Below are positions 1,235-37,517 of a DNA stretch of 64,000 nt, in pieces. This stretch comes from Alphaproteobacteria bacterium (GTDB taxonomy: Bacteria > Pseudomonadota > Alphaproteobacteria > MPNO01), in NCBI GenBank assembly GCA_963667285.1, contig OY763326.1, positions 4,847,546-4,911,545 of the forward strand, written 5' to 3'. The first letter of the stretch is position 1. Every line of letters starts with the position of its first letter. The notes below the pieces were generated by a model. That model had not been told where the DNA came from. It ran no database searches and saw only the letters and a list, made by a program, of their open reading frames with translations. Both the position numbers and the translations under genes were made by a program.

Positions 1235-1957
1235 TTTCATTTGTTACTTGTTTGACCGATAGCGGTGAACGTTTATTTATTCTCTGCTAGGAATGATGGT
1301 TCCCAACAACTCTAATTGTACAGTCGGCCTGCTACAGTATGCGGCGTGTCGAGGCCGTATCTGACATCCACATTAGAGCATTAATCATGAGCTACGTCCT
1401 CTGCCACCCGGTGGGTCGCGCGTTAGTATCCGTCGGCGACGAGGCCTTGAGCGAGGCCGTCTCCTCGCTACACCGCTTTTGATGCTCGATCAGATGGTGC
1501 TCAGGCTTCTGGCGCCGCTAGGGGACCACGGCTACGTCCTGCCTGGGAATCTAATCGACATCCTCGACTCGACGGAGCGACGGGAGCGGATCGAAGAGGC
1601 GAAGGAGCGTCTGGGGCTGGCGTGATCGGCCCGCTCGGATCGCGCTCATGACGAAGGGGAGGGACGCGATGAAATGACATCGTCAAGACCATATCGCCCC
1701 GTCGCCGGACACCGGGTCCGGAACGGTCCCCATCGTGGCGCGGCCCTCTGGAAACTCGTCTGACAGGCGAGTACCGCGCGAGATTACGGCTCATTGGGAG
1801 GAGAAGATGAGACCTTTGAATTCTCATTCGCCTACTCCCGTAGCAGACGCCTACTCCCGTAGCAGACAGCGCAGAAAAGGCGCCGTGTAGTCCGTGCCGT
1901 GAATGTAAAGCTCGTCCGGGTTTATCGTGCCGGGCTTGAAGTAGATCACGACGCGAT

Positions 1958-4042: not shown

Positions 4043-4228
4043 GCCGTCGGCTTCGAGGTAGTCGTAGATCTCCGGTGAGGCGAAGGCCGCATCGCCGCGG
4101 AATGACCCGTTCGCCGCCGCGCTCCAACGCCCCCCCGCCCCCCAACGTCATGCCCGGGCGCCCTCTGGCGTCCGGCGCGGCGCTTTCGTAGAGTCGGGCC
4201 GTCCTCCGGGCAATCCGCAGGAGTGGAG

Positions 4229-5044: not shown

Positions 5045-5062
5045 CGCCCCGTCCCCGGCTCC

Positions 5063-10546: not shown

Positions 10547-10623
10547 GGGCCCGTAGTTCAGCTGGTTAGAACGCGCCGCTCATAACGGCGTTGTCGCAGG
10601 TTCAAGTCCTGCCGGGCCCACCA
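10547..10623 (+). tRNA. tRNA with CAU anticodon, likely tRNA-Ile2 (lysidine) rather than elongator Met
   Basis: 77-nt cloverleaf. Acceptor stem GGGCCCG/CGGGCCC plus ACCA, D-arm GTTCAGCTGGTTAGAAC, anticodon stem CGCCG/CGGCG with loop CTCATAA (anticodon CAT), T-arm GCAGGTTCAAGTCCTGC. G1:C72 is paired, so it is not an initiator. C4:G69 and C5:G68 match TilS identity elements of tRNA-Ile2. Confidence 0.85.
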
Positions 10624-13746: not shown

Positions 13747-14146
13747 GCGACGCCGTCCCCGTCCAGCTCAACCCCTGCAGCCGGCCGAGCGGCCGCATCC
13801 CTTGCGGCGCAAACCTTGCACGCGCAATAGCCCCGCGCAACGCCGTGGCCGAGCGCAGCAGGACCGCCGCCGGCTTGCCGCTGTCCGTGCGATAGACGTG
13901 GACCGGCAGGAACAGCGACAGCTGCTGGTGGCCGTGAACCCGGTCGCAGGTGTCGTCGATGTCGAGCGTGATCGCCGCCGGCGGGGCGGGGCGAATGGTC
14001 GATCCCCGGCAATGCGACAGGGGAACAAGCCCCGCCGCCGTGTTGACCGCCGGGCGCCGCAATCCCTATAAGACACGGGATCCTTGCCCGCCGCACCGCT
14101 GCGTTGGGCGCGCGCGCGGATCGCCATCGACATTCGGGGCAAGGCC

Positions 14147-16255
14147 ATGATCCGAGGTCCGGACAGCGGACGGGGCGGCATCCAGGTCGGCGTCGACATC
14201 GGGGGCACGTTTACCGATATCGTCTTGTGCCGCTCCGACGGCCGCCTTCACGTGAAGAAGGTTTCTTCGACGCCGAGCGATCCATCTCAAGCGGTGATCG
14301 CCGGGCTGGGCGAGGTGCTGGCGGAAAACGGTCTCGATCCCGCCGGGGTCGACACCGTCGTGCACGGTACCACTGTCGGCTCGAACTGCATCCTGGAACG
14401 GACCGGCGCCCGCACCGGCCTGCTGACCACAAAGGGATTCCGCGACGTTCTGGAAATCGGACGTATCCGCACGCCGGACATGTTCGACCTGGAGTGGGAC
14501 AAGCCCCGGCCACTGGTTCGGCGCCGCCTGCGGCTGGAGGCGGACGAGCGCATCGCTGCCGACGGCAGCGTCGTCCGGCCGCTCGACGAGGATTCGGTGC
14601 GGTCCGCGGCCGAGGTCTTCAAGGCCGAAGGCGTCGAGTCGGTGGCCGTGTGCTTTCTCAACAGCTATCGCAACCCGGCTCACGAACAGTCGGCAGCGTC
14701 GCTGCTGCGGCGGATCTGCGCGGACATGAACGTCACCGCCTCCTGCGCCGTGCTGCCGGAGATGAAGGAGTACGAGCGCACCAGCACGACGGTGGTCAAC
14801 GCTTTCATCCAACCGGTCATGCGCCGCTACATCCGCCGTCTCGAGGCGGGGCTCCGGGACATGGGCGTCACGGCTCCGTTGCTGGTCGTGGCCTCCAATG
14901 GCGGGATCCTCAGCGCCGGGGCCATGGCCGAACGGCCGGTATTCGCGGTTGGCTCGGGGCCGGCTGCCGGTGTTGCGGGAGCGGCGCGCCTGGGCAAGGC
15001 GCTGGGCGAGGAGGATCTGATCGTCTTCGACATGGGGGGCACGACGGCAAAGGCATCGCTGGTCGAAGCCGGGCACCTCACCCTTACCTCCGAGTACGAG
15101 TTCCGCGATGGCATCACCACGCCGAGCCGCTTCATCAAGGCCGGCGGCTACATGCTGAAAGTGCCGGCCATCGACATCGCCGAGGTCGGGGCGGGGGCCG
15201 GATCGATCGCCTGGCTCGACGCCGGAGGTCTGATCAACGTGGGACCCCGCTCCGCGGGGGCGGAGCCCGGCCCCGCCTGCTACGGGCTCGGGGGGGACAA
15301 GCCGACGGTCACTGACGCCAATGTGGCGCTCGGATACCTCAACCCGGAGTCGCTCGCCGGCGGCAGGCTGAAGATCGACGCTTCGCTGGCCGAGGCCGCC
15401 ATCTCCGGCACGCTGGGCGCCCTCGGCCTGGGCCTGACGCAGGCCGCATACGGAATCCGCCGGGTGGCCAACGCCAACATGGCGCGCGCCATCCGGGCGG
15501 TCAGCATCGAACGGGGCCGGGATCCCAGGCGGTTCACCATGATCGCGTTCGGCGGCAGCGGGCCTGTGCATGCCGTCGACCTGGCCCGCGCGCTGGAGGT
15601 CCGGCGGGTCCTGATCCCGATCCTGCCCGGCGTCTTCACCGCCGCGGGAATGCTGGCCAGCGACGTCGAGCATCACTTCGTGCAAAGCTTCTCCGGACGG
15701 ATGGACGAGCTGGACGTCACCGGTGCCAACGAGGTTCTCGCCAGCCTGGCCCGATCCGGCGTCAAGGCCCTGGAATCCGATGGCTACGGGCCGGAAGAAC
15801 GGGACATCTCCTATTTGGCCGACCTCCGATTTCTCGGTCAGGGTTCGGAGCTGACGACGCCGGTCGAAGCGGCGCAGATCGACGGGTCGGGGCTGTCCGT
15901 GTTGCGGCAGGCGTTTCTGGACGAGTATGCTCGCACCTACGGGCATCAGGCCGAGGATCCCATCGAGATGGTTAACCTGCGGGTTGTCGCGACGGGCCGG
16001 CGCCCCAACCGGCTGCGATTCGAGGCGGTGACCGGCGCGACCGGGGCGCAGGACATGGAACGGTCCCGGAGGCCGGTATTCGACGGCGAGGCACAGGCGT
16101 TCCGTGACACCGAAGTGCTGCCCCGTTCGGCCTTGCTGGAGAGCAGCCTGGACGGTCCCGTCATCATCGAGTCCTACGATTCGACTGTTGTCGTGCCGGC
16201 CGGCTGCCGGGTCGAGGGCGACGCCGCCGGCAACATGCTGATCGAGGTCGGGTAA
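14147..16255 (+). CDS. hyuA: hydantoinase/oxoprolinase family protein, A subunit (HyuA-like, ATP-dependent)
   Basis: IQVGVDIGGTFTDIVL N-terminal ATPase motif and hydantoinase_A domain pattern. The ORF track extends it to 14084. Confidence 0.85.
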   Translation: MIRGPDSGRGGIQVGVDIGGTFTDIVLCRSDGRLHVKKVSSTPSDPSQAVIAGLGEVLAENGLDPAGVDTVVHGTTVGSNCILERTGARTGLLTTKGFRDVLEIGRIRTPDMFDLEWDKPRPLVRRRLRLEADERIAADGSVVRPLDEDSVRSAAEVFKAEGVESVAVCFLNSYRNPAHEQSAASLLRRICADMNVTASCAVLPEMKEYERTSTTVVNAFIQPVMRRYIRRLEAGLRDMGVTAPLLVVASNGGILSAGAMAERPVFAVGSGPAAGVAGAARLGKALGEEDLIVFDMGGTTAKASLVEAGHLTLTSEYEFRDGITTPSRFIKAGGYMLKVPAIDIAEVGAGAGSIAWLDAGGLINVGPRSAGAEPGPACYGLGGDKPTVTDANVALGYLNPESLAGGRLKIDASLAEAAISGTLGALGLGLTQAAYGIRRVANANMARAIRAVSIERGRDPRRFTMIAFGGSGPVHAVDLARALEVRRVLIPILPGVFTAAGMLASDVEHHFVQSFSGRMDELDVTGANEVLASLARSGVKALESDGYGPEERDISYLADLRFLGQGSELTTPVEAAQIDGSGLSVLRQAFLDEYARTYGHQAEDPIEMVNLRVVATGRRPNRLRFEAVTGATGAQDMERSRRPVFDGEAQAFRDTEVLPRSALLESSLDGPVIIESYDSTVVVPAGCRVEGDAAGNMLIEVG

Positions 16256-16260
16256 GGCGA

Positions 16261-18024
16261 ATGGCGCAGGCCGCCGCCATTCAGGACGCCGTTCGCGGGG
16301 ACATCGACCCGATCACCTTCGCGGTGATCAAGAGCGCCCTGGATTCGATTGTCGACGAGATGGCCTACACGGTGGTTCGCACCGCGCGGTCGGAGATCGT
16401 CAAGGACGTGATGGATTTCTCCGCCGCCCTGTGCGCCGCCGACGGACAGATGGTGGCGCAGGCCAAGACCATCGCGCTGCATCTCGGCGCCGTCCCGGTC
16501 GCCATGGACCACGTGCTCGCGAAGTTCGGCGACGATCTCAACCCCGGCGACATGGTGATCATGAACGACCCCTATGTCGGCGGCATGCACCTGCCCGACA
16601 TCTTCATGTTCATGCCCATCTTCCACGGCGGCAGGCGCCAGGCGATCGCCGTGGTGATCGCCCACCACACCGACGTGGGGGGCCGCGTTCCCGGGTCCAA
16701 CGCCAGCGACTCGACCGAGATCTTCCAGGAAGGCCTGCGCCTGCCGCCCGTGAAGCTCTACGAGGCCGGCATCCCCAACCGGACCCTGTTCGACATCATC
16801 GCCCAGAACGTACGGGTGCCCGACCGGGTGATCGGCGATCTCGGCGCCCAGAGCGCCGCCTGCACGGTGGGTGAGCGGGAATTCCTCAAGCTGGTCGCCC
16901 GCTACGGCGCCGGTCCCGTCCAGGGGTACATGCAGGGGCTGATCGACTATGCCGAGCGCATGACCCGCGAAGAAATCCGCGCCTGGCCGGACGGCACCTA
17001 CGTCTTCACCGACCACATCGACGATGACGGCTTCAGCGACGATCCCATCCCGATCAAGGCGACCGTGACGGTCGACGGCGACCACGTCACCGTGGACTAT
17101 GACGGCAGCGCGCCGCAGGTCCGCGGCGCCATCAACTCGACCCTGTCCTACACCGCCTCCTGCACCTATCTGAGCGTCCGCTGCCTGCTGCGGGGAGACA
17201 TCCCCAACAACGCGGGCGTGTTCCGCTGCGTCACCGTCAGGGCGCCGGAACGGTCGGTCCTCAACCCCGCCCATCCGGGCGCCTGCGCCGCCCGGGCGCT
17301 GACCGGCTACCGGATCGTGGACACGATGTTCGGGGCGCTCGCCCGAGCCGTGCCCGACCGGGTGCCGGCCGGGGGCGAGGGCGGCAACACGGTGGTGTGC
17401 CTCGGCGGATACCGCGAGGACCGCTCGCCCTTCATCATCGTCGACATGCTGTGCGGCGCTTGGGGCGGCCGCCCGGGCAAGGACGGGATCGAGGCGGTCA
17501 CCAACCCGTCGCAGAACCTGTCGAACACGCCCGTCGAGGTGCTCGAGGCCCAGCATCCCGTGCGCATCGAGTCCTACGGCTTCGTCGCCGACAGCTGCGG
17601 CGCCGGCAAGCATCGCGGCGGCCTCGGCATCGCGCGGGAGTACCGCCTGCTCGCCGACGAGGCGACGCTGCAGCTGCGCTCGGACCGCATGAAGTTCCGC
17701 CCCTACGGCCTCGCCGGCGGCCTTCCGGCCCAAGCGACCCGCAACATTCTCAACCCGGGGGACGGCGAGAGGGAGATGCCCAGCAAGTTCGCCCGAACCC
17801 TGACGAAGGGAGAAGTCATCTATCACCGCCAGGCCGGCGGCGGCGGTTTCGGCAACCCCTTCGAGCGCGACCCCCCGCAGGTGCGGGAGGACGTGCTCGA
17901 CGGTAAGATCACGGTCGATTTCGCCCGGCGCGCGCATGGCGTCGCCATCGACCCGAAGACCCTGGCGGTCGACGCGGAGGCGACGCGGTGCCTGCGGGAC
18001 GCCGCCAACCGATCGTGCAAATAG
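16261..18024 (+). CDS. hyuB: hydantoinase B/oxoprolinase family protein (HyuB-like)
   Basis: Hydantoinase_B pattern (DPITFAVIKSALDSIVDEMAYTVVRTARSEIVKDVMDFSAAL...). 5-nt gap after hyuA. Confidence 0.85.
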   Translation: MAQAAAIQDAVRGDIDPITFAVIKSALDSIVDEMAYTVVRTARSEIVKDVMDFSAALCAADGQMVAQAKTIALHLGAVPVAMDHVLAKFGDDLNPGDMVIMNDPYVGGMHLPDIFMFMPIFHGGRRQAIAVVIAHHTDVGGRVPGSNASDSTEIFQEGLRLPPVKLYEAGIPNRTLFDIIAQNVRVPDRVIGDLGAQSAACTVGEREFLKLVARYGAGPVQGYMQGLIDYAERMTREEIRAWPDGTYVFTDHIDDDGFSDDPIPIKATVTVDGDHVTVDYDGSAPQVRGAINSTLSYTASCTYLSVRCLLRGDIPNNAGVFRCVTVRAPERSVLNPAHPGACAARALTGYRIVDTMFGALARAVPDRVPAGGEGGNTVVCLGGYREDRSPFIIVDMLCGAWGGRPGKDGIEAVTNPSQNLSNTPVEVLEAQHPVRIESYGFVADSCGAGKHRGGLGIAREYRLLADEATLQLRSDRMKFRPYGLAGGLPAQATRNILNPGDGEREMPSKFARTLTKGEVIYHRQAGGGGFGNPFERDPPQVREDVLDGKITVDFARRAHGVAIDPKTLAVDAEATRCLRDAANRSCK

Positions 18025-18045
18025 CAGACAAGGGAGGAAGCAAGA

Positions 18046-19053
18046 ATGAGTGCCACGACCAGACGTTTCGCTCTCGCCGCCGCCGGCGGCGCACTGCTTG
18101 GCGTTTTCGCCGCCTCCGCCGTCCAGGCGGCCGATCCCAAGCTTTCGGTCCGCGTCGACTGGACGCCCTGGGGAATGCATGCCGGCCTCCATCTGGCCAA
18201 GCAGAAGGGCTGGTTCAAGGAGGCCGGGGTCGACGTGGAGATCTCCGACGGCAAGGGCTCTTCGCTGCTCATGCAACAGGTGGCGGCCGGTGACGTCGAC
18301 GTGGGCTGGGCCCAGATCGGAACCATGATGGTTGCCGCCTGCAAGGGCCTGCCGGTCAAGGCGGTCGCCGTGCTGGCGCGCGCCGGCGATCTGGGCTTCA
18401 TGGCGGACAAGTCCAAGTACAAGTCGCTCGCCGACCTCAAGGGGCAGAAGCTGGCCTATGCCGCGACCAGCGGCGCCGGTCCCTTCCTGGACACCTTCCT
18501 GAAGGCGGCGGGAGTGTCGAAGCGGGACTTCAAGGTGGTCAACGTCGACGCGTCGTCGCTGGTCAGCGTCTATACCTCGGGCGAGGCCGAGGCGTCGTTC
18601 TCCACGGTCGGCTTCTTCCTGCCCATCGTGTCCAAGAAGCGCCCCGCCTACGGCATCACCATGGCCAGTGTCGGGATCCACATCCCGAGCTACGGGCTGG
18701 TCAGCACCCAGAAGGTAATCGACGCGAAAGCCGAGGCGCTGAAGCGCTTCGTTCCGGTAGTCGGCAAGGCCTGGACCTACATCTTCGAATCGGATGCAAA
18801 TCTCGACGAGGCGATCGACGCCATCGCCAGCCAGCGTCCCAACGAGAAGCTGGACACGGCGGTGATGAAGGGTCAGGCCGCAATCTACAAGGAGCTGGGC
18901 CTGTTCAGCACGAAGCGCACCATGGACAAGACGTTCGGCTGGACCCATCCCGACGACATGGCCGACGCGCACAAGGTGCTGGAGGCGGTCGAGCTGTGCA
19001 AGCCGGGCAAGGCGACCGCCGACTTCTACACCAACCGGTTCGTCGGCGGCTGA
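18046..19053 (+). CDS. ABC transporter substrate-binding protein, NMT1/THI5-like (NitT/TauT family)
   Basis: Signal peptide plus NMT1-like SBP pattern. Strong GGGAGGAAG RBS. Confidence 0.8.
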   Translation: MSATTRRFALAAAGGALLGVFAASAVQAADPKLSVRVDWTPWGMHAGLHLAKQKGWFKEAGVDVEISDGKGSSLLMQQVAAGDVDVGWAQIGTMMVAACKGLPVKAVAVLARAGDLGFMADKSKYKSLADLKGQKLAYAATSGAGPFLDTFLKAAGVSKRDFKVVNVDASSLVSVYTSGEAEASFSTVGFFLPIVSKKRPAYGITMASVGIHIPSYGLVSTQKVIDAKAEALKRFVPVVGKAWTYIFESDANLDEAIDAIASQRPNEKLDTAVMKGQAAIYKELGLFSTKRTMDKTFGWTHPDDMADAHKVLEAVELCKPGKATADFYTNRFVGG

Positions 19054-19123
19054 GCCGTCAGGGCGTCGACACCGGGGGCGGGCTCCGGTCCCGCCCCCCG
19101 GAGCGCCCGAAGAACGCCTGGCG

Positions 19124-19921
19124 ATGGGCAACGGCGCAATCCGCGACGCCTATGTCGAGGTCCGCGACCTGAAGAAGGTCTACGCCTCCACCAAGGGCGA
19201 CTTCACGGCGCTTCAGGGCGTCGATCTCGACATCCGGCAACGCGAGTTCTTGAGCGTGCTCGGACCGAGCGGCTGCGGCAAGAGCACGCTCCTGAAATGC
19301 GTTGCCGGGATCACCGGCATCAGCGGAGGCGCCATCCAGGTCCAGGGACAGCCGGTCGTCGAGCCGCCGGCGGGGATGGGCATCGTTTTCCAGCGGGACA
19401 TCCTGCTGGACTGGCGGAGCAACCTCGACAACGTCCTGCTGCCCATCGAGTTCCGCCGCCTGAACAAGGCCGAATATGTCGGCCACGCCATGGAGCTGTT
19501 CGCCCTGCTCGGGCTCCAGGGGTTCGAGCACCGGCATCCCTGGGAGCTTTCCGGCGGCATGCGGCAGCGGGTGGCGATCTGCCGTGCCCTGATCCAGGAT
19601 CCCGAGCTGCTGCTGATGGACGAGCCGTTCGGGGCGCTCGACGCCCTGACCCGGGACGAGCTCAACCTCGAGCTGCAGCGCATCTGGATGGCCGATGCCA
19701 AGACCGTGATGTTCATCACCCACAGCATCGTCGAATCCGTGTTCCTGTCCGACCGGGTGGCCGTGATGACCTTCACCCCCGGCCGCATCCTCGAAATGAT
19801 CGACATAGACCTGCCGCGCCCGCGCGATCTCGATGTCCGCGAGACCGCGGAATTCGGGCGCTACGTCACCCACATCCGCGACCTGTTCAAGCAGATGGGA
19901 CTCTTCAAGGCCTCCGAATGA
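19124..19921 (+). CDS. ABC transporter ATP-binding protein (NitT/TauT family)
   Basis: Walker A GPSGCGKST, signature LSGGMRQR and Walker B LLLMDEP. Confidence 0.9.
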   Translation: MGNGAIRDAYVEVRDLKKVYASTKGDFTALQGVDLDIRQREFLSVLGPSGCGKSTLLKCVAGITGISGGAIQVQGQPVVEPPAGMGIVFQRDILLDWRSNLDNVLLPIEFRRLNKAEYVGHAMELFALLGLQGFEHRHPWELSGGMRQRVAICRALIQDPELLLMDEPFGALDALTRDELNLELQRIWMADAKTVMFITHSIVESVFLSDRVAVMTFTPGRILEMIDIDLPRPRDLDVRETAEFGRYVTHIRDLFKQMGLFKASE

Positions 19922-20730
19922 ACGCCCTGACGGCATTGCTGCGCGTCATGTCCGGATCGGGACGGGCGGGTTCGGCGTTTCGCGTCGTTGCCGGGTTCTT
20001 CCTCCTGTGGGAGGCGGGGTGCCGCGTCTTCGAGGCGCCCGTGTTCATCCTGCCGCCGCCATCGCTGGTCTTCTTGCGCTTCGCCGACGACCCGGCGCTG
20101 TTCGCCGAGCACACGGCCAACACGCTGTTCTACTGCCTGTTCGGCTTCGGCCTCGCCTTCGCGGCCGGCCTCGCGATCGCCGTCGGCATCGTCTATTCGA
20201 AGTTCCTCGAGAACACCCTCTTCACGCTGCTGGTGAGCCTCAACAGCATTCCCAAGATCACCCTGGCGCCGCTTTTCATCATCTGGATGGGGACCGGCTC
20301 GGCACCCAAGGTGGCGGTGTCGATGACGATCGCCCTGTGGGCCGTGGTGATCGACACGGTGCTCGGCCTGCGCTCGGTGGAACCGGACGTGCTGGACATG
20401 GCCCGTTCGATGCGTGCGTCGAAGCTTCAGGTGCTGTGGAAGATCCGCTTCCCGGCCGCCTTGCCTGCCATGTTCGCCGGAACCAAGGTGGCGATATCCA
20501 TGGCCCTGGTCGGCGTCATCGTCGGCGAGTTCGTGACCACCGACGTGGGCCTCGGCTTCGCCATCATGTCGGGACAGGGGAATTTCGACATCCCCATGGT
20601 CTATGTCTCGATCATCATCCTCGGCGTGCTGGGGACCTTGCTGTTCTACCTCGTCGACATGGTGGAACGCCTGGTCATCCCGTGGCACGTTTCCCAGCGG
20701 GCCGAGCCGGCCGGCCCGGGGAGCGCCTGA
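19918..20730 (+). CDS. ABC transporter permease (NitT/TauT family)
   Basis: Its ATG overlaps the ATPase stop (ATGA). Multi-TM BPD_transp_1-type permease. Confidence 0.85.
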   Translation: MNALTALLRVMSGSGRAGSAFRVVAGFFLLWEAGCRVFEAPVFILPPPSLVFLRFADDPALFAEHTANTLFYCLFGFGLAFAAGLAIAVGIVYSKFLENTLFTLLVSLNSIPKITLAPLFIIWMGTGSAPKVAVSMTIALWAVVIDTVLGLRSVEPDVLDMARSMRASKLQVLWKIRFPAALPAMFAGTKVAISMALVGVIVGEFVTTDVGLGFAIMSGQGNFDIPMVYVSIIILGVLGTLLFYLVDMVERLVIPWHVSQRAEPAGPGSA

Positions 20731-20748
20731 CATGCCGGGCGCTGCGCC

Positions 20749-21558
20749 GTGAGACTGCTGGTCGCCCTTGCCGGCGCCCTGGCGGGCCCGGGACGCACCC
20801 GCACGGTGATCCTGGTCCTGATCGGGAGTCTGGCGCTGTGGGAGGCCGCGACGCTGGCGTTCCGCCCCGAACCCTTCGTGTTGCCCGCGCCCTCCGCGGT
20901 CTTCGCCGAAATCGGCAGCGACATTCCGTGGTACGCCAACCACGCGATGTTCACCCTGGGTGCCACGCTGATGGGCTTCGGCCTTGCCGTGCTGGCGGGG
21001 ACGCTGGCGGCGATCGGGATCGTCTATTCCCGAGTCCTGGAGCACACCCTGTACACCCTGCTGGTCTCCCTCAACAGCATTCCCAAGATCGCGCTCGCAC
21101 CCCTGTTCGTCATCTGGATGTCGACGGGCGCGGCCTCGAAGGTCGCCATCGCCATGACCATCGCCCTGTGGCCGGTGGTCATCGACACGGTGCTTGGCCT
21201 CCGATCGGTCGAGCCGGAAGCGCTGGAGATGGCCCGCTCGATGCGGGCGACCAAATGGCAGGTCTTCTTCAAGATTCGCCTGCCCAACGCCTTGCCCTAC
21301 ATGTTCTCCGGCATGAAGGTCGCCATTTCGATGGCCCTGGTGGGCGCCATAGGCGGCGAGTTCGTGGCGTCGGAGGTGGGTTTGGGCTACGCTATCCTGG
21401 TGGCCCAGGGCCAGTTCAAGACCGACGTCGTGTTTGCCGCCATCATCCTCCTCGGCATTATGGGGACGCTGCTGTTCTTCCTGGTCGTGCTGGTCGAGCG
21501 CTTTTTCGTGACCTGGCACGTCACGCACCGCGCCGACGCGCATATCCACACCGCCTGA
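20749..21558 (+). CDS. ABC transporter permease, second paralogous copy
   Basis: GTG start. Translation is strongly similar to the preceding permease (…LLVSLNSIPKI[T/A]LAPLF[I/V]IWM…TIALW[A/P]VVIDTVLGLRSVEP…). Confidence 0.85.
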   Translation: MRLLVALAGALAGPGRTRTVILVLIGSLALWEAATLAFRPEPFVLPAPSAVFAEIGSDIPWYANHAMFTLGATLMGFGLAVLAGTLAAIGIVYSRVLEHTLYTLLVSLNSIPKIALAPLFVIWMSTGAASKVAIAMTIALWPVVIDTVLGLRSVEPEALEMARSMRATKWQVFFKIRLPNALPYMFSGMKVAISMALVGAIGGEFVASEVGLGYAILVAQGQFKTDVVFAAIILLGIMGTLLFFLVVLVERFFVTWHVTHRADAHIHTA

Positions 21559-21582
21559 GCCACGGGACCGGCAGGAGGCCGC

Positions 21583-22337
21583 ATGACCGAACGCATCTGG
21601 GACAGGTTCCTGACCGAGCGGGACAGGGAGAGGTGTTCGAACGTTCCGGCTACGGCACCCGCGGCGGCCTCGGGAGGCGGCCGGCCGTGCTGGTGATCGA
21701 CATGACCTACGACTTCGTCGGGGACCGGCCCGAACCGGTGCTGGAATCCATCAGGCGCTGGCCCAATTCCTCGGGCGAGGAAGGCTGGGCCGCCATCGCG
21801 GTCATCGAATCGGTGATCACCCGCGCCCGGCGGAAGAACCTGCCCCTCTTCTACACCAAGCCCGGCATCCGGCCGGATGGCTGGGACTGGGGCGGCTGGC
21901 ACTGGAAGAGCTCGCGCATCGAGGAGTGGCTCCAGGAGCCCACCGCCGACTTCGACGGCAACCGCATCGTCGCCCGGCTGGCGCCGGCGGCGCGGGACAT
22001 CGTGATCCCGAAGCACAAGCCGAGCGCTTTCTTCGGCACGCCCCTGATGCCGATGCTCACCCAGCTGGGGGCGGATTCGCTCATCGTCACCGGTTGCACC
22101 ACCAGCGGATGCGTTCGCGCGAGCGTCGTCGATGCGTTCAGCTACAACCTGCGGGTTGCGGTGGTCGAGGAGGGATGTTTCGACCGGGCCCAGGCGTCCC
22201 ATGCCATGACCCTGTGCGACCTCGACGCCAAATACGCCGACGTGCTGCCCGCCACGGAGATCCTGGACTACATGGACGGGTTGTCGGGCGACCTCTTCGT
22301 ACTGCCCGGCGGCGCACCCCCGCCACCGCCGGCGTGA
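21583..22337 (+). CDS. isochorismatase/cysteine-hydrolase family protein with apparent frameshift near 21628-21634 (N-carbamoylsarcosine-amidase-like)
   Basis: ATG 21583 with AGGAGG RBS encodes MTERIWDRFLTERDRE, then the family continuation (E)VFERSGYGTRGGLGRRPAVLVIDMTYDF...LIVTGCTTSGCVRASVVDAF runs in the +2 frame to TGA 22337. The family assignment is good. The integrity of the 5' end is uncertain. Confidence 0.65.
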
Positions 22338-22341
22338 GCCC

Positions 22342-23322
22342 GTGCCTGACGCCCTTCCCGTTTCGGTCTGCTTCTGGAACTACGACCGGACGGCGGCCCT
22401 CGCCGACGGCCGGGCGCCGATGCGGGGCTGCGCGCCCGCCTTCACCATCCTGCCGCCCGAGGAAGCCTTCGCGCGCGCCTTTTCGACCGCCGAGTTCGAC
22501 ATTACCGAACTCTCCTTCAGCAACCACCTGACGGCGTTGAGCCAAGGCCGCGCCGCGTACACGGCAATTCCGGTCTTTCCGTCGCGAGCGTTCCGCCATG
22601 GCAGCCTGTTCGTCCGCACCGACCGGGACATCCGCGAACCGGCCCATCTGAAGGGCAGGCGCATCGGGCTGCAGGAGTACCAGATGACGGCGGCGCTGGT
22701 GGTGCGTGGCATTCTCCGGGACGACTACGGCATCGAACCCGGCGACCTCGCCTGGGTGGTCGGCGGCGTCGAAGAGCCCGGACCGCCGCGCGACCGTACC
22801 GAGATCCCCGGTGTCGCCATCGAGGCCGCGCCACCCGGCGAAAGTCTGGACGCGCTGTTCGCCGACGGCCGGCTGGACGCCCTGCTCGCCCTCCGGCCGC
22901 CGCCCTGCATTGCCGCCGGCGCCTACCCGGTGGGTCGCCTGTTCCCGGACTGGCGGGCGGCGGAGCAGGACTACTATCGGCGCACCGGCCATTTCCCGAT
23001 CATGCACGTCATGGGGGTCCGTCGATCCCTGCTGGACGAGCACCCCTGGCTGGCGCGGTCCGTTTACGATGCCTTCTGCCGGGCCAAGGACATTGCGGTC
23101 GGCGAGCTCGCCGTCATTCAGGCGCCGAAGGTAACCCTTCCGTGGGGCGCGGCGGAGCTGGAGGCGACACGGGCCTTGATGGGTGAAGACATCTGGCCCT
23201 ACGGCGTCGGCGCCAACCGCGAGACCCTGGATCGCCAGATCGGATGGTCCTGCCGGGAGGGCCTGTCGGCGCGGCGTATCCCGGTCGAGGCGTTGTTCGC
23301 CGCCGGCACCCTGGACACCTGA
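22342..23322 (+). CDS. 4,5-dihydroxyphthalate decarboxylase (PhtD)-like / NMT1-fold protein
   Basis: N-terminal VSVCFWNYDRTAALADGRAPMRGCAPAFTILPPEEAFARAFSTAEFDITELSFSNHL fits the PhtD family pattern. Confidence 0.7.
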   Translation: MPDALPVSVCFWNYDRTAALADGRAPMRGCAPAFTILPPEEAFARAFSTAEFDITELSFSNHLTALSQGRAAYTAIPVFPSRAFRHGSLFVRTDRDIREPAHLKGRRIGLQEYQMTAALVVRGILRDDYGIEPGDLAWVVGGVEEPGPPRDRTEIPGVAIEAAPPGESLDALFADGRLDALLALRPPPCIAAGAYPVGRLFPDWRAAEQDYYRRTGHFPIMHVMGVRRSLLDEHPWLARSVYDAFCRAKDIAVGELAVIQAPKVTLPWGAAELEATRALMGEDIWPYGVGANRETLDRQIGWSCREGLSARRIPVEALFAAGTLDT

Positions 23323-23360
23323 GGGAGGCGGGCCCCGATGAGGACGTTGGGACGCAATCG

Positions 23361-23693
23361 ATGAATGACGGTCCCCATGCTTCCGGTCACCACGACTACG
23401 GTGGAAAGCCCGCCGGTCGGATCGACACGACGCTCCACGGCGCCACGGTGTGGGAACAGCGGGTCGATGCGATTCTGGAACTGCTGGGCGATCCGCGCCG
23501 CAGGCTGATGCGAGTCGACGAGTTCCGCCGGATGAACGAGACCATGGCGCCCGAGGACTACGAACGGCTGACCTATTACGAGCGCTGGGTCCACTCCATC
23601 ACGCGGCTGATGATTCGCAAGGGCGTCGTCACGGAAGAGGAGCTCTCCGCAAAGATGTCCGAGATTCGCGCCCGCGGGGACGCGCCCCTGTGA
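23361..23693 (+). CDS. nitrile hydratase superfamily, beta-subunit N-terminal-half protein (ScnB / thiocyanate hydrolase beta-like)
   Basis: MNDGPHASGHHDYGG...WEQRVDAILELLG...YYERWVHSITRLMIRKGVVTEEEL matches the N-terminal domain of NHase beta (MNGxHDxGG...WEKR...YYERW...). It stops after 110 aa. Confidence 0.75.
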   Translation: MNDGPHASGHHDYGGKPAGRIDTTLHGATVWEQRVDAILELLGDPRRRLMRVDEFRRMNETMAPEDYERLTYYERWVHSITRLMIRKGVVTEEELSAKMSEIRARGDAPL

Positions 23694-23706
23694 CGGTTCG
23701 ACGGCC

Positions 23707-24003
23707 GTGACTCCCCGCTACGCCGTCGGCGACGCCATTCGGGTTGGCGATCGCCGGGAACCCGGACATGTGCGAACGCCGGGCTACCTGATGGGCCGGG
23801 AAGGTCGCATCCTGCGGGTCTGCGGCGCCTTTCCCGATCCCGGCCGGCTGGCCGAAGGCGGGCTCGGCCTGCCTTACCGGATGCTCTACCGGGTGGCGTT
23901 CCGGCAACGGGATCTTTGGCCGGACTATGGCGGACCGGATGCCGACGACCTGGTGACCGATCTTTACGAACACTGGCTGGAACCGCGGGACCGGACACCA
24001 TGA
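23707..24003 (+). CDS. nitrile hydratase superfamily, beta-subunit C-terminal-half protein (ScnA-like)
   Basis: YAVGDAIRVGDRREPGHVRTPGYLMGREGRILRVCGAFPDP...YRVAFRQRDLWPD matches the C-terminal SH3-like domain of NHase beta. 13-nt gap after the previous ORF. Confidence 0.75.
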   Translation: MTPRYAVGDAIRVGDRREPGHVRTPGYLMGREGRILRVCGAFPDPGRLAEGGLGLPYRMLYRVAFRQRDLWPDYGGPDADDLVTDLYEHWLEPRDRTP

Positions 24004-24608
24004 ACCATCCTCATCCTCATCCCCACGCCGCGCCGGCGGAGCGGGAGCCCGATCCGCAGATCGCCCTCAAGGAGATGGCCCTGCGGGAACTGCTGATCGA
24101 GAAGGGCGTCTTCACCGCCGCGGACATCCGGCGCGCCATGGAGGCGATGGAGGCCCGAAGCCCGGCGGTGGGCGGGCGAATCGTCGCCCGGGCGTGGCGC
24201 GACCCCGCCTTCAAGCGCCGTTTGCTGACCCATGCCAACGGGGCGGTCGCCGAATTCGGGGTCGCCATGGGCCTCGCCGAGTTGACGGTGGTCGAGAACA
24301 CGCCGGAGCTGCACAATGTCATCGTCTGCACCCTGTGTTCCTGCTACCCCCGGGCGCTGCTCGGAATTCCGCCGAGCTGGTACAAGTCCAAGGCGTATCG
24401 GTCGCGCGTCGTTCGAGAGCCGAGAGCGGTGCTTGCCGAGTTCGGCACCGATTTGCCTGGCGATGTCGTCGTCCGCGTTCACGACAGCACCGCCGATCTC
24501 CGCTACATGGTTCTGCCGCAGCGCCCGGCCGGTACCGATGACTGGGACGACGAGAGAATGGCGGCCCTGGTCACGCGCGATTGCCTGGTGGGGGTAACGG
24601 CGGCTTAG
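24000..24608 (+). CDS. nitrile hydratase alpha-subunit-like catalytic protein, cobalt type (ScnC/gamma-like)
   Basis: Metal-site motif VCTLCSCYPRALLGIPPSWYKSKAYRSRVV (Co-type VCTLCSC, not Fe-type VCSLCSCT) and C-terminal RYMVLPQRPAGTDDW. Its ATG overlaps the previous stop (ATGA). Unusual His-rich N-terminus MNHPHPHPH. Confidence 0.85.
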   Translation: MNHPHPHPHAAPAEREPDPQIALKEMALRELLIEKGVFTAADIRRAMEAMEARSPAVGGRIVARAWRDPAFKRRLLTHANGAVAEFGVAMGLAELTVVENTPELHNVIVCTLCSCYPRALLGIPPSWYKSKAYRSRVVREPRAVLAEFGTDLPGDVVVRVHDSTADLRYMVLPQRPAGTDDWDDERMAALVTRDCLVGVTAA

Positions 24609-25662
24609 AGCACTATCCTATCGAGTTGAATCGATTGTGATTTCCCAAGGTTTTGCGATTCGTGATCCACACTGTCTGCCGGGGAGGAGGCCGGCGGACA
24701 TGTCCCGAGCACTTTCCCTTGATCTTCGCGTACGTGTCGTGGCGGCGGTTGCCGCGGGGTTGAGCCACCGCGCGGCCGCGGCCCGTTTCGGTGTGAGCGC
24801 GGCGAGTATCAGCCGGTGGCGCCGGCGGGCGCGGCTGGAAGGCGATCCCGGCCCGAGGGCGGCGGGCGGCGACCGTCGTTCGGGCCGCATCGAGGCGCAT
24901 CGTGGGCTGGTGCTTGGGCTGGTCGCCGAGACCCCGGACATCACCATCGAGGAGTTGCGCCGCCGGCTTGCCGGGCGCGGGCTGAGCTTCGGCTACGGCA
25001 CCGTCCAGCGTTTCCTGGTGCGCCACAACATGACGCGCAAGAAGAAGACCGGCCATGCCAGCGAGCAGGATCGCCCCGACGTGCTGGCCCGGCGCCAGTC
25101 CTGGCGCGACGGCCAGGCCGGGCTCGATGCGGCGCAGCTGGTCTTCATCGACGAGACCTGGGCCAAGACCAACATGGCGCGTGCTTACGGCCGCGCGCCG
25201 CGCGGCGAGCGCCTGCGCATGAGCCGGCCGCACGGCCACTGGAAGACCTCAACCTTCGTCGCCGGGCTCACCGTGCGCGGCATGATCGCCCCCTTCGTGC
25301 TCGGCCGCCCGATCAACCGTGTCGCCTTCGAGATCTATGTCGAGAAGGTGCTGGTCCCCGAACTGCGTCCCGGCAACATCGTCGTCATGGACAACCTGTC
25401 CAGCCACAAAGGGGAGAGGGTGCGCCAAAGGATCGAGGCCGCCGGCGCCGAGCTCCTCTTCTTGCCGCCCTACTCACCCGACCTCAACCCCATCGAAATG
25501 GCCTTCGCCAAGCTCAAGGCGTTGCTCCGCAAGGCCGCAGAGCGCACCGTCGACGGCCTCTGGGACGCCATCGGAAACATCCTCAAGAGCTTCCAACCCC
25601 AGGAATGCAGAAACTACTTCGCCGCCGCTGGTTATGATCCAACCTGATCGGATACTGCTCTA
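24606..25662 (+). mobile_element. IS630-family insertion sequence (about 1.05 kb) with TA target duplication
   Basis: Imperfect terminal inverted repeats GAGCACTATCCTATCGAGTTGAAT (24608-) and the reverse complement of ...CCTGATCGGATACTGCTC (-25660), about 21 of 26 matches. TA at 24606-07 and 25661-62. Single DDE transposase ORF inside. Confidence 0.8.
24700..25647 (+). CDS. IS630-family (Tc1/mariner-like) DDE transposase
   Basis: N-terminal HTH (LSLDLRVRVVAAVAAGLSHRAAAARFGVSAASISRW) and DDE region (FIDETWAKTNM...VVMDNLSSHK...YSPDLNPIE). Confidence 0.85.
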   Translation: MSRALSLDLRVRVVAAVAAGLSHRAAAARFGVSAASISRWRRRARLEGDPGPRAAGGDRRSGRIEAHRGLVLGLVAETPDITIEELRRRLAGRGLSFGYGTVQRFLVRHNMTRKKKTGHASEQDRPDVLARRQSWRDGQAGLDAAQLVFIDETWAKTNMARAYGRAPRGERLRMSRPHGHWKTSTFVAGLTVRGMIAPFVLGRPINRVAFEIYVEKVLVPELRPGNIVVMDNLSSHKGERVRQRIEAAGAELLFLPPYSPDLNPIEMAFAKLKALLRKAAERTVDGLWDAIGNILKSFQPQECRNYFAAAGYDPT

Positions 25663-28926: not shown

Positions 28927-30366
28927 TCAGGTCGGGACGTCGACCTTCGGGAACACCGCCCGGTAGCTCCCGAGCTCCTTCTTGAGGCGGCGCTTGCCGA
29001 TGCGCTTGACGATCTTGGTCCACGCCTCCTCGGTATCCTTGAGCACCCGGTCCGGCTTCTTCTGCCCGACATAGGCCTCGGACAGGTTCTTGGCGAGCTG
29101 GTCCTGGAACTCGAGATAGCCGGTCAGGTAGATCGGCGGCGAGGCCACCTTGAGGCAGGTCTCGATCGCCGAGATGCCGCCCGGCGTGTAGGCCGTCTTG
29201 ACCAGGTCGGACTTCATGTGGCCGACATGCCACGGGTCGTGGAAGGTGTTGACCCGGTCGGCGACGATCTCCTCGGAGTTCTTCAGCGAGCCCCACCACA
29301 TCGCCATATAGGCCGCCTTCTCCTTGTTCTTGGAGTACTTGTTCACCAGGATCGCGCCGAGCGGGGAGGAGATCGCGCGGTGGATCAGCTTGCCGGAGAA
29401 CTTGGAGCCCGGCGACAGGCTGTAATGCCACTTGCCGGCGGTCTTCGACTTCTTGGGGTTCTCGTTGAGCGCGATGATGCCGTCCCAGTACTGGCAGGCG
29501 AAGGCCTTGCCGCCGGTGATCCTCGGGATCATCTGCGGCGTGCCCCAGCCCGGCGCCTCGGGGTGGGAGACCTTCTTGATGTTGAGATAGGTCTCGACCG
29601 CGTAGCGCCCGGCCGGCGTGTCCAGCGTCGGGTTCATGTCGTCGTCGAACGGGAAGCCGCCCGCCGAGTAGAAATACATGTACCACCAGGTCACGCCGTT
29701 GGCGCGGTTGCGCAGATTGGCCGAGCCGTACAAATCCTGGTCGGGCCGGTGGAAGAACTCCATCAACTGCTGGTCGTCCTCCCAGGTCACCGGATAGTCG
29801 AGCTTCTTGCCGTGCTTGTCCTCGAAGGCCTTCTGCTCGTCCGGGTTCTCCATCAAATCCTTGCGGGTGAACTGGACGTGAACGTTGCCGTCGGTCGGGA
29901 CGCCGTAGGTGTTGCCCTTGTAGCGCATGAAATTGCCGTAGGTCCCGACCGCGTCGATCGAGAAATCGGCCTTCTTCATGTAAGCGTCCAGCGGCTCGAG
30001 CAGGCCGGCCGAGGCGAGCGAAGGGATCATGTTCGAATCGACGTGGAAGAAATCGAACTCGGGCGAGCGCGACAGGGCCTCGGCCATCGCGCGCTGCGGG
30101 ATGATGAAGATCGAAATGTCCTGGATACTGCCGACGCCGATCCCGGTGGACTGCCTGAACCGCTCCATCGACGCCGTCATGGCGACGTAGTAGTTCGACC
30201 AGATCATGCCCTTCAGGTCGGCCCCGCCGGCGCCCTTCGCCGCGGCTATGATCTTCTCGTTCTCGGTGGCGCCCCAGGCGAGCCCCGGAATGCCGACCGG
30301 CAGCGCGGAAAGCGAGGCGACGGTCAGACCGCCCTTGACGACATCACGCCTTGAGAACTTGCTCAT
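28927..30366 (-). CDS. ABC transporter substrate-binding protein (extracellular solute-binding family 1) with Tat-type signal
   Basis: MSKFSRRDVVKGGLTVASLSALPVGIPGLAWG twin-arginine signal and a large SBP_bac_1-like body. Confidence 0.85.
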   Translation of the reverse strand: MSKFSRRDVVKGGLTVASLSALPVGIPGLAWGATENEKIIAAAKGAGGADLKGMIWSNYYVAMTASMERFRQSTGIGVGSIQDISIFIIPQRAMAEALSRSPEFDFFHVDSNMIPSLASAGLLEPLDAYMKKADFSIDAVGTYGNFMRYKGNTYGVPTDGNVHVQFTRKDLMENPDEQKAFEDKHGKKLDYPVTWEDDQQLMEFFHRPDQDLYGSANLRNRANGVTWWYMYFYSAGGFPFDDDMNPTLDTPAGRYAVETYLNIKKVSHPEAPGWGTPQMIPRITGGKAFACQYWDGIIALNENPKKSKTAGKWHYSLSPGSKFSGKLIHRAISSPLGAILVNKYSKNKEKAAYMAMWWGSLKNSEEIVADRVNTFHDPWHVGHMKSDLVKTAYTPGGISAIETCLKVASPPIYLTGYLEFQDQLAKNLSEAYVGQKKPDRVLKDTEEAWTKIVKRIGKRRLKKELGSYRAVFPKVDVPT

Positions 30367-30521
30367 TCGGTGGACCTCCCCTGATCCGTGTTGCAACCCA
30401 GCGGGTACATCGTTCGGTCCGGCAAGCTAAACAAAACCCCGGGGACGAACAAGAGAATTGCACTTTTGGAAAATTTCGTGATTTTGGAAAAAACGAACGC
30501 CTGACAGCGGGAGGACCGACC

Positions 30522-31388
30522 ATGAAACCGGCGCCGTTCGCCTATCACGACCCGTCGACCGTCGACGAGCTGATGGGCCTGTTGGCCGAGAGGGAGAACG
30601 CCAGGCTGCTGGCAGGCGGCCAGTCGCTGATGCCGATGCTCAACATGCGCTACGCGATGCCCGACCACCTGATCGACCTCAACGGCATCGGCGACCTCGC
30701 CGGCGTCGCGGAGACCGGCGAGGCCGTCGAAATCGGCGCGATGACGCGCCAGCGCGACCTGCCGGGCTCGCGGCCGGCCGCCGGGCGCTTTCCGATTCTC
30801 GCCGAGGCGCTGGCGCAGGTCGGCCACTTCCAGACCCGCAACCGCGGCACGGTGGGGGGCAGCCTGTGCCATCTCGATCCGTCCGCCGAGCTTCCCTGCG
30901 TCGCCGCCGCCGCCGATGCGGTGCTGGTGGTGCGCGGCCAGGACGGGGAACGCGAGGTCGCCATGGCCGACTGGCCCACCGCCTACATGACGCCCGACCT
31001 CGCCGCGGACGAGGCGCTGGTGCGCATCCGCCTGCCCGAGAGCGCGGCGCTCGACGGCCAGGCGTTCGCCGAGTTCGCGAGACGGCACGGCGATTTCGCC
31101 ATCGTGGGGGTGGCGGCGATGCTCTCGCTCGACGGCGACACGATCCGGCGCGCGTCCCTCGCGGTGGCCGGCGTCGGCCCGCACCCGGTGCGCCTCGCCG
31201 AAATCGAGGCGGCGCTCGCGGGCGAGCCGGCGAACGAGGCGACCTTCAAGGCAGCTTCCGGCGAGGCGCGCGGAATCGAAGCGATGAGCGATGCCTATGT
31301 CAGCGGCAAGTACCGCCGGCGCCTGACCGGCGTGCTGGTGGAGCGCGCGCTGGCGAAGGCCGCCGAACGGGCCCGGGAGGCCGCGTGA
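30522..31388 (+). CDS. molybdenum hydroxylase FAD-binding medium subunit (CoxM/CutM-like, xanthine dehydrogenase family)
   Basis: FAD_binding_5 pattern (LLAGGQSLMPMLNMRYAMPDHLIDL...) and CO dehydrogenase flavoprotein C-terminal domain. Confidence 0.85.
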   Translation: MKPAPFAYHDPSTVDELMGLLAERENARLLAGGQSLMPMLNMRYAMPDHLIDLNGIGDLAGVAETGEAVEIGAMTRQRDLPGSRPAAGRFPILAEALAQVGHFQTRNRGTVGGSLCHLDPSAELPCVAAAADAVLVVRGQDGEREVAMADWPTAYMTPDLAADEALVRIRLPESAALDGQAFAEFARRHGDFAIVGVAAMLSLDGDTIRRASLAVAGVGPHPVRLAEIEAALAGEPANEATFKAASGEARGIEAMSDAYVSGKYRRRLTGVLVERALAKAAERAREAA

Positions 31389-31389
31389 C

Positions 31390-31890
<501 letters not shown>

Positions 31891-31893
31891 GCG

Positions 31894-36678: not shown

Positions 36679-36782
36679 GAAGGTCTCCGGCAAATGACAC
36701 CGCCGCGGATTTGATCGCCGGCGGTTTTCTGATACGACAAATATACGCGAATACGATAATCGGACCACAAGGGGGGAGCGCC

Positions 36783-37517
36783 ATGACGGAACGCAGGGTG
36801 GAGATTCTCGACCGCTCCGAGATGGTCGAGAAGATGACCGGGCTGCTTCACCTGAAGCCCGGCGAGACGGCGATCGTTACCGTCGACATGCATCGCGGCC
36901 ATCTCGACCCGGAGGTCGCGACCATGCCGGCGAAGGCGGAAGACAGCGCCCGGGTGATCGCCAACGCGAAGCAGGTCCTCGACCTCGCGCGCGGGCACGG
37001 CGTCCCGGTGATCCACGTCATCCTGGTCTATCGCAGGATTCCGGGTGTGGGCAGCGAGGGCATGACGGCGCCGTTCTGGGCCGCGATGTCGGAGATCACC
37101 GACGAGGAGAACCGCCTCACGCTCGGCCGCAAGTCGACCGTGAACGACCACAACATCGAGGGCAGCCCCGGCACCCAGATCATCCCGGCGCTCTACGCCG
37201 CGACCGACTACGTGATCGACAACAAGAAGCGCCTCGACTGCTTCATGGGCACCGACCTCGACATGCTGCTGGAGAACCTCGGGGCGCGGAATGTCTGCCT
37301 GATGGGCATCAACACCAACACCTGCGTGCTGAACACGGCGTTTACCGCGCACAACAGGAACTACGCCACGGTCGTGCTCTCGGACTGCGTCGCCAGCATG
37401 TATGGCGACGACCTCCACGAGTTCGGTCTCCAGAACGTCATGCGATGCCTGGGCTGGGTGCTCGACAACGAGCAGTTCGCGGCCAAGCTCGAAGCAGGCC
37501 GCCGGCTCAACGCTTAG
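36783..37517 (+). CDS. isochorismatase/cysteine-hydrolase family protein
   Basis: Family pattern with GETAIVTVDMHRGHLDP and catalytic-Cys region LMGINTNTCVLNTAF. ATG 36783. Its stop TAG 37514-16 lies inside the IS4 target duplication. Confidence 0.85.
   Translation: MTERRVEILDRSEMVEKMTGLLHLKPGETAIVTVDMHRGHLDPEVATMPAKAEDSARVIANAKQVLDLARGHGVPVIHVILVYRRIPGVGSEGMTAPFWAAMSEITDEENRLTLGRKSTVNDHNIEGSPGTQIIPALYAATDYVIDNKKRLDCFMGTDLDMLLENLGARNVCLMGINTNTCVLNTAFTAHNRNYATVVLSDCVASMYGDDLHEFGLQNVMRCLGWVLDNEQFAAKLEAGRRLNA

Follow-up and report, generated by a model that had tools for sequence, protein, structure and literature searches.

The stretch of 64,000 nucleotides (nt) analyzed in this study, which derives from contig OY763326.1 of an alphaproteobacterial assembly and is referred to here as the window, harbors three consecutive open reading frames (ORFs) on the plus strand between positions 23361 and 24608, whose products are predicted to form a cobalt-type nitrile hydratase (NHase) in which the beta subunit is specified by two separate genes. 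ORF1 (23361 to 23693) initiates at an ATG codon and encodes a protein of 110 amino acids (aa) with a mass of 12.73 kDa, ORF2 (23707 to 24003) initiates at GTG and encodes 98 aa (11.20 kDa), and ORF3 (24000 to 24608), starting from the ATG at position 24000 rather than 24001, encodes 202 aa (22.25 kDa), coordinates and translations which agree with those given in an earlier note on this DNA. That note had further described the three genes as translationally coupled, which holds for ORF2 and ORF3, with their 4-nt overlap (ATGA), but not for ORF1 and ORF2, where the stop codon of the former (23691 to 23693) is followed by a gap of 13 nt, with no overlap, before the start of the latter at 23707. 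The third-position GC content of ORF1 to ORF3 (0.73 to 0.84) supports their reading frames as coding, and the 110-aa start assigned to ORF1 is backed by 27 homologs retrieved through a word index, all of which are 102 to 112 aa in length.

The profile searches which the earlier note had proposed recovered the NHase alpha subunit and both halves of the NHase beta subunit, in keeping with its reading of each gene. ORF1 scored above the cutoff of the Pfam family PF21006 (NHase_beta_N; E value, 2.4e-19), as did ORF2 for PF02211 (NHase_beta_C; E value, 1.6e-20), and their products are referred to here as beta-N (AnhD-like) and beta-C (AnhE-like), the latter representing the SH3-like C-terminal half. 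On the 226-position NCBI beta subunit model TIGR03888, beta-N spans positions 3 to 105 and beta-C positions 136 to 225, which indicates that the beta subunit is cut at its interdomain linker, with approximately 30 linker residues absent. Neither half attains the single-chain cutoff of this model (61.2 and 68.9 bits against 152.2), as is expected for a split protein. The ORF3 product (alpha, AnhA-like) matches PF02979 (NHase_alpha) over its full length (E value, 1e-79; 266.7 bits against a cutoff of 27.2) and narrowly passes the NHase alpha equivalog model TIGR01323 (251.2 bits; cutoff, 249.85). Among solved structures, all three products are best matched by the canonical Co-type NHases of Pseudonocardia thermophila and Pseudomonas putida, with alpha matching 4ob1 and 3qxe at E values of 1e-60 to 1e-66, beta-N aligning with residues 9 to 93 of the P. 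putida beta chain 3qxe_B, and beta-C aligning with residues 129 to 218 of the same chain. Judged by these sequence relationships, ORF1 to ORF3 constitute a genuine three-gene Co-type NHase, with the beta subunit divided between two small genes.

The residues which are expected to form the active site can be read directly from the three products. Alpha residues 108 to 116 (IVCTLCSCY) contain the VCTLCSCY motif that the earlier note had recognized, and correspond to the Co-type motif as defined previously (PMC7329996); the metal-binding segment Cys110-Thr-Leu-Cys113-Ser-Cys115 is encoded at positions 24327 to 24344 (plus strand) and is followed by Tyr116-Pro117-Arg118 (24345 to 24353). Conservation of this motif and of the beta subunit residues described below was counted over 78 to 84 distinct members of the split-beta family. 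All 84 of the alpha sequences compared contain CTLCSC, and 83 have CSCYPR, the corresponding segment in the solved two-subunit Co-type NHases being CSCYPW, and CSCYPR may, on the strength of this comparison, represent a signature of the split-beta family. Beta-N carries Arg56 within DEFRR, together with a YYERW segment, and this residue aligns with the arginine of DEFRH in 3qxe_B, while beta-C carries His21 and Arg23 within GHVRTPGY, the latter aligning with the arginine of GHTR in the same chain. In NHases, these two beta subunit arginines hydrogen-bond the oxidized cysteine ligands of the metal. Conservation of Arg56 across 82 distinct family members is 95% or higher, and the same holds, individually, for His21 and Arg23 in the family. 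A further feature is the histidine-rich N-terminal tail of alpha, which includes HPHPHPH (24006 to 24026, plus strand). The alpha N termini of the family are similarly rich in histidine, with 3 to 14 histidines in the first 30 residues of every split-beta alpha examined except that of locus L067, for which the chosen start may lie too far downstream; the most extreme tails, as in HDHDHDHDHDH, reach 14 histidines in 30 residues.

The split organization is not particular to the window. A scan of GTDB, with one genome per species, yielded 88 relatives, of which 80 were retained (L010 to L089), spanning the Alphaproteobacteria, Dehalococcoidia/SAR202, Binatia, Planctomycetia, Actinomycetes, Gammaproteobacteria, Gemmatimonadota, and others. 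In each of the 83 fetched loci which harbor all three genes, the beta subunit is split, the gene order is betaN-betaC-alpha, and no fusion is observed. When 1.84 billion cluster representatives were searched exhaustively with HMMER, 1,038 relatives of beta-N were recovered at E values of up to 1e-3; among the top 150, most are 80 to 160 aa in length, and more than 100 of the representatives are stand-alone beta-N proteins. These counts indicate that the split is maintained under selection rather than being the product of a frameshift. Relatives of alpha are more numerous still (over 8,000 in a large-database search), the entries being environmental and routinely named "nitrile hydratase subunit alpha"; no Streptomyces entry was found among the best 120 of them. 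The handful of enzymes studied to date greatly understates how widespread the split-beta form is, and the family may supply biocatalysis with self-maturing NHases. All 80 genome records are metagenome assembled, with no cultured isolate among them, and the search patterns were taken from the window's own clade, which may have biased this sampling.

The alpha gene is immediately followed by an insertion sequence (IS) of the IS630 family (24608 to 25660, plus strand; 1,053 bp), whose transposase gene occupies 24637 to 25647 and matches NF033545 (transpos_IS630) with 208.7 bits. The target of the insertion was the TA within the stop codon of alpha, where the G at the start of the element rebuilds TAG, and the element is bounded by a TA duplication (24606 to 24607 and 25661 to 25662) and imperfect terminal inverted repeats of approximately 26 bp. 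An IS-free allele is available in the metagenomic contig L001, which is 98 to 99% identical to the window over this region, and comparison of the two demonstrates that the insertion deleted nothing and preserved the alpha stop codon. Loss of an activator gene through this insertion was considered and rejected, as nothing is missing relative to the empty site. The earlier note had reported that no activator gene follows alpha. The annotation of the 64-kb window lists no gene for an activator or accessory protein, and none adjoins the trio in L001 or in the loci of relatives, in which the gene after alpha encodes a glutathione S-transferase (GST), a TetR regulator, or a molybdenum hydroxylase, never an accessory protein. 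Beta-N itself shows a weak match to TIGR03889, the family of NHase accessory proteins (E value, 0.0034), which agrees with the weak resemblance that has been reported between swapping chaperones and beta subunits, and with the reported chaperone role of AnhD.

The cluster is located in a plastic, IS-rich region, with three IS elements in the window in all (the other two at 3446 to 4042 and 37693 to 38913). In L001, positions 1 to 5740, which correspond to window positions 14084 to 19096, the hydantoinase and binding protein genes described below are replaced by an IS21-type element (rve and IstB) and a large serine recombinase. Megablast comparison of positions 21600 to 24700 with a plasmid collection returned no match.

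The closest characterized precedent is the NHase of Streptomyces canus CGMCC 13662 (ScNHase; Guo et al. 2019, 2020), which was absent from the earlier note, although two of the three precedents were named there. ScNHase is a Co-type enzyme encoded in the order anhD-anhE-anhA, AnhD and AnhE being the N- and C-terminal parts of the beta subunit; no activator gene is present in the S. canus genome, and the enzyme is active without one (PMC7329996). Its subunits have masses of 10.41, 11.35, and 21.33 kDa, AnhD2E2A2 has been proposed as the native form, and AnhD acts as both metallochaperone and swapping chaperone (PMC7329996). Its studied substrates are the neonicotinoids acetamiprid and thiacloprid, which it hydrates, and the enzyme is reported to be similar to eukaryotic NHase (PMC7329996), while a 2026 review repeats this description and lists AnhE-His21 as functionally important (PMC13243292). 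The window enzyme, likened to ScNHase through these published descriptions, shares with it the succession of beta N-terminal half, beta C-terminal half, and alpha, the Co-type motif, the missing activator, the subunit masses (10.4, 11.4, and 21.3 kDa versus 12.7, 11.2, and 22.3 kDa in the window), and beta-C His21, which is conserved in the family. As gene order and the absence of an activator are common to both, the architecture described here is not new; three-subunit, activator-free Co-type NHases have already been characterized, and the finding adds little at the level of the enzyme. The two systems differ in that ScNHase is actinobacterial, whereas the close relatives of the window enzyme are found in alphaproteobacterial metagenome-assembled genomes (MAGs); the operon detailed below is described for ScNHase in neither of the two publications cited (PMC7329996, PMC13243292).

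Canonical two-subunit Co-type NHases (1ire/4ob1 and 3qxe) have in common with the window enzyme the VCTLCSCY motif, the two beta subunit arginines, and the YYE-W segment, as well as, in the case of the P. putida alpha subunit, a histidine-rich N terminus. They differ in possessing a single-chain beta subunit of approximately 220 to 230 aa with the linker of approximately 30 residues that is absent from the window, and in generally requiring a separate activator (P14K, NhlE, or NhhG). The NHase of Monosiga brevicollis, by its description, resembles the window enzyme in lacking an activator and in carrying a histidine-rich segment, but its subunits are fused in one chain, which is the opposite arrangement.

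The chemistry of the Co(III)/Cys-sulfinate/Cys-sulfenate center is established for NHases in general. In the window enzyme, alpha would bind low-spin Co(III), the ligands being the three cysteines Cys110, Cys113, and Cys115 together with the backbone amides of Ser114 and Cys115, with Cys113 and Cys115 being oxidized to sulfinate and sulfenate, respectively, and these oxidized ligands being held by beta-N Arg56 and beta-C Arg23; attack on the metal-bound nitrile would then yield the carboxamide. The assembly is probably (betaN-betaC-alpha)2. Maturation is presumed, by analogy with ScNHase, to proceed through self-subunit swapping, in which free beta-N would also act as metal chaperone, and the histidine-rich alpha N terminus, which may constitute a built-in metal (cobalt) capture segment where no activator is present, may assist in this process. 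Although the margin by which alpha clears the NHase equivalog cutoff is small (1.4 bits), we consider it very likely, from the combined sequence evidence, that the trio encodes a functional AnhDEA-type Co-NHase which hydrates an organic nitrile and matures without a dedicated activator.

The trio lies at the 3' end of a tight plus-strand gene array (14084 to 24608), in which all of the neighbors mentioned in the earlier note, i.e., hydantoinase A and B, a NitT/TauT-type ATP-binding cassette (ABC) transporter, and an amidase-like hydrolase of the isochorismatase family, are present. The array begins with genes for Hydantoinase A (14084 to 16255; Pfam Hydantoinase_A) and Hydantoinase B (16261 to 18024; Pfam Hydantoinase_B). 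The HydB product matches an N-methylhydantoinase (7hk5; E value, 7e-96) and 6yra_B, deposited as "Hydantoinase" (4e-78), and the nearest NCBIfam families of HydAB are CapA/CapB, below cutoff; by these relationships, HydAB is predicted to be an ATP-dependent cyclic-amide hydrolase of the N-methylhydantoinase/caprolactamase type. Next are the genes of an ABC importer, comprising an NMT1-type (NitT/TauT) binding protein (18046 to 19053; Pfam NMT1), an ATPase (19124 to 19921; Pfam ABC_tran), and two permeases (19918 to 20730 and 20749 to 21558; both Pfam BPD_transp_1). The nearest solved structures of the binding protein, which are remote, are those of the pyrimidine-binding proteins ThiY (3ix1; E value, 1e-13) and THI5.

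Between the importer and the NHase trio lie two further plus-strand genes. The first (21633 to 22337, with a start possibly located approximately 48 nt further upstream, as in the gene call for L001) encodes a predicted isochorismatase-family cysteine amidohydrolase (PF00857; E value, 2.2e-26). Its best PDB match is N-carbamoylsarcosine amidohydrolase (CSHase; 26st_A; E value, 3.5e-25; 35% identity; also 1nba), with which it shares an identical TSGCVR segment, taken here to hold the catalytic cysteine of CSHase; the next matches, 4l07/4l08 and 3ot4/3uao, are presumably maleamate amidohydrolases. The second (22342 to 23322) encodes p326, a 326-aa cytoplasmic protein with the fold of a substrate-binding protein, for which no Pfam domain above threshold was found. 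It aligns end to end with PDB entry 9jp7_A ("4,5-dihydroxyphthalate decarboxylase"; E value, 5e-87; 47% identity over 321 aa) and is treated here as a homolog of that enzyme.

This set of genes recurs in six independent lineages, whose beta-N sequences are 68 to 76% identical to that of the window: the window and L001; L002 to L005 together with L010, from JGI metagenome 3300020200, the same contig also being represented by a GenBank Alphaproteobacteria MAG; L011, a MAG labeled Baikal-deep; L006 to L009; L090 and L091; and L092, from farmland. The p326 gene accompanies the trio in all six, being located immediately upstream in four (in L090 it overlaps the beta-N gene by 4 nt) and elsewhere in the cluster in L006/L007 and L011. 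An isochorismatase-family gene likewise accompanies the trio across the six lineages, with HydAB and the ABC importer, and co-clustering of HydAB with the NHase was observed in L002, L006, L011, L090, and L092. Gene order differs between lineages, the fullest co-linear form consisting of binding protein, ATPase, permease, an optional molybdenum hydroxylase, isochorismatase, p326, beta-N, beta-C, alpha, GST, HydA, HydB, and TetR. The operon was found in lake and soil metagenomes, and literature searches returned no description of this gene combination.

On the basis of gene adjacency and family identity, we tentatively propose, at somewhat less than even odds, that the NHase performs one step of a conserved catabolic operon in an alphaproteobacterial clade. 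According to this proposal, the NMT1-type ABC transporter would import a cyano-bearing ring compound, whose nitrile would be hydrated to an amide by the NHase; the isochorismatase-family cysteine hydrolase would convert the amide to the acid with release of NH3; p326 would release CO2 from the acid; and the N-methylhydantoinase-like HydAB would open a lactam or ureide ring at the expense of ATP. Our best guess for the substrate is a hydroxylated or oxo N-heterocyclic or aromatic nitrile, the molybdenum hydroxylases embedded in some clusters and the pyrimidine-type binding protein leaning towards an N-heterocycle. A more specific version, which must be regarded as doubtful, is that the NHase is the entry enzyme of an undescribed conserved "decyanation" operon, in which the cyano carbon is stripped in three steps prior to ring opening, with p326 acting as a cofactor-independent decarboxylase built on a binding protein fold. 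The pairing of an amidase, a decarboxylase homolog, and an ATP-dependent lactamase offers a testable hypothesis for the bacterial mineralization of a natural ring-bound nitrile, and this conserved set of neighbors, hinting at an unstudied route of nitrile degradation, constitutes the fresh lead to emerge from the analysis.

Several observations weigh against the proposed pathway. The order of its steps is drawn only from gene adjacency and family names, and HydAB and the CSHase-like enzyme could act on a hydantoin-like ring independently of the NHase. The scores of the amidohydrolase and HydAB, like those of p326 and the binding protein, fall well short of the curated NCBIfam equivalog cutoffs and do not indicate exact substrates. 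The binding protein and HydAB genes are displaced by IS21 in L001, and the more distant split-beta NHases (beta-N identity of 55% or less) occur without this gene context, which consequently marks a single clade with, presumably, a single substrate. In the window and four related loci, Rfam models identified only a tRNA and no riboswitch, including preQ1, and provide no clue as to the ligand.

Of the alternative substrates, an N-cyano (cyanamide-type) compound, although improbable, fares best. The same type of enzyme would in this case convert N-C≡N to an N-carbamoyl (ureido) group, which the CSHase-like hydrolase would remove as CO2 and NH3; that HydAB would feed into this route, or follow it, through a hydantoin-like ring is equally improbable. 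The best solved relatives of the hydrolase and of HydB, N-carbamoylsarcosine amidohydrolase and N-methylhydantoinase, are indeed enzymes which act consecutively in creatinine catabolism, and the split-beta ScNHase hydrates acetamiprid and thiacloprid, both of which carry N-cyano-imine groups. This route would, however, leave the strongly conserved p326 without a role, the identity of the hydrolase to CSHase is just 35%, and N-cyano compounds are, to our knowledge, rare in nature, yet the operon is conserved in metagenomes from lakes and soil.

Considerably less probable, and in our view very unlikely, is a role as a 7-deazapurine NHase with preQ0 or toyocamycin as its substrate, serving salvage or catabolism and not antibiotic biosynthesis. 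The model for such an activity is ToyJKL of Streptomyces rimosus, a split-beta three-subunit NHase which likewise consists of an alpha subunit (PF02979) and separate beta-N (PF21006) and beta-C (PF02211) polypeptides, and whose alpha subunit, ToyJ, is reported to be catalytically competent alone. The remote relationship of the binding protein to pyrimidine-binding ThiY and THI5 would be compatible with a ligand of this kind, and the conversion of the preQ0 nitrile to amide and acid, followed by decarboxylation, would pass through the known compounds 7-amido- and 7-carboxy-7-deazaguanine. ToyJKL, however, is encoded within a 7-deazapurine biosynthetic cluster, where it converts toyocamycin to sangivamycin, whereas the annotated genes of the 64-kb window and the related loci include none for the biosynthesis or salvage of 7-deazapurines, and the Rfam scan revealed no preQ1 riboswitch. 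The gene annotation of the window likewise contains no sulfur-oxidation genes and no cobalt uptake genes. As the earlier note had pointed out, the locus resembles neither thiocyanate nor toyocamycin loci.

That the trio represents a thiocyanate hydrolase (SCNase), converting SCN- to COS and NH3, is exceedingly improbable, despite a layout which, as previously noted, is alike: with reference to ScnA/B/C of Thiobacillus thioparus (2dd4 and 2dd5), beta-N aligns with the SCNase beta subunit, beta-C with the SCNase alpha subunit (2dd4_A residues 36 to 124), and ORF3 with the gamma subunit (E value, 1.7e-52), which carries the cysteine cluster. Three subunits with a split beta are nevertheless not diagnostic of SCNase, being found in AnhDEA and ToyJKL also. 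ORF3 attains 217.4 bits with the SCNase gamma model TIGR03887, well below its cutoff of 291.45, yet passes the NHase alpha cutoff, and all three subunits are nearer to the canonical Co-NHases. In addition, the window subunits, which had been recognized as small, lack the SCNase extensions (98, 110, and 202 aa compared to 126, 157, and 243 aa for the SCNase alpha, beta, and gamma chains in the PDB), and their context is one of organic compound catabolism rather than sulfur oxidation. Thiocyanate, which the earlier note had listed among the possible substrates, is accordingly disfavored.

Finally, decay of a two-subunit NHase, its beta gene having been broken by a frameshift or nonsense mutation to leave a non-functional locus, would suit the IS-rich region, in which IS630 abuts alpha and two other elements lie elsewhere in the window, but is excluded as a pseudogene reading to the point of negligible probability by the clean absence of the linker in all 83 three-gene loci from several phyla, the more than 100 stand-alone beta-N representatives, the conserved catalytic residues, the coding-like third-position GC, and the alpha stop codon kept at the IS insertion.

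Certain members of the split-beta family depart from the arrangement observed in the window. In SAR202/Dehalococcoidia (L035, 10755 to 13113; L041, 13662 to 16065; and approximately 40 other loci), two genes for pyridoxal phosphate (PLP) enzymes, whose products carry Ala_racemase_N and D-ser_dehydrat domains, are located between the beta-C and alpha genes, and a polysaccharide deacetylase-family gene precedes that of beta-N; some of these loci contain a further 1.1 to 5.9 kb between beta-N and beta-C, including a PIN gene in L041. This context, being both different and conserved, suggests a different substrate, perhaps an amino-nitrile. Should the decyanation proposal prove correct, the clades of the split-beta family would be dedicated to different natural nitriles, the SAR202 clade with its interleaved PLP enzymes being one example. 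A few longer beta-N relatives, namely, P0044 (201 aa), P0057, P0076, and P0089 (approximately 330 aa), contain two beta-N-like stretches or extra domains and may represent tandem duplications or fusions within the family.

The remainder of the window is an IS-rich catabolic region encoding TRAP transporters, a Rieske oxygenase, a LigB dioxygenase, and several luciferase-like monooxygenases, with a tRNA-Met (CAT) gene (10547 to 10623, plus strand) positioned between two TRAP transporter gene sets. The TetR regulators of the relatives' clusters have no match in the window, and their GSTs match it only weakly (27% identity, at 39389 to 39925). A three-subunit molybdenum hydroxylase (FAD, 2Fe-2S, and molybdenum cofactor subunits) is encoded 6 kb downstream of the NHase (30351 to 34224); it was considered as an ortholog of those embedded in the L006 and L090 clusters and rejected, its identity to them being 34 to 39% (34 to 38% for the molybdenum cofactor subunit) and those two being equally distant from one another. 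A second isochorismatase-family gene (36711 to 37517) is located after this hydroxylase, and a CN_hydrolase gene of the nitrilase superfamily (49611 to 50678, minus strand) lies among genes for LigB dioxygenase, Amidohydro_2, and luciferase-like monooxygenase proteins.

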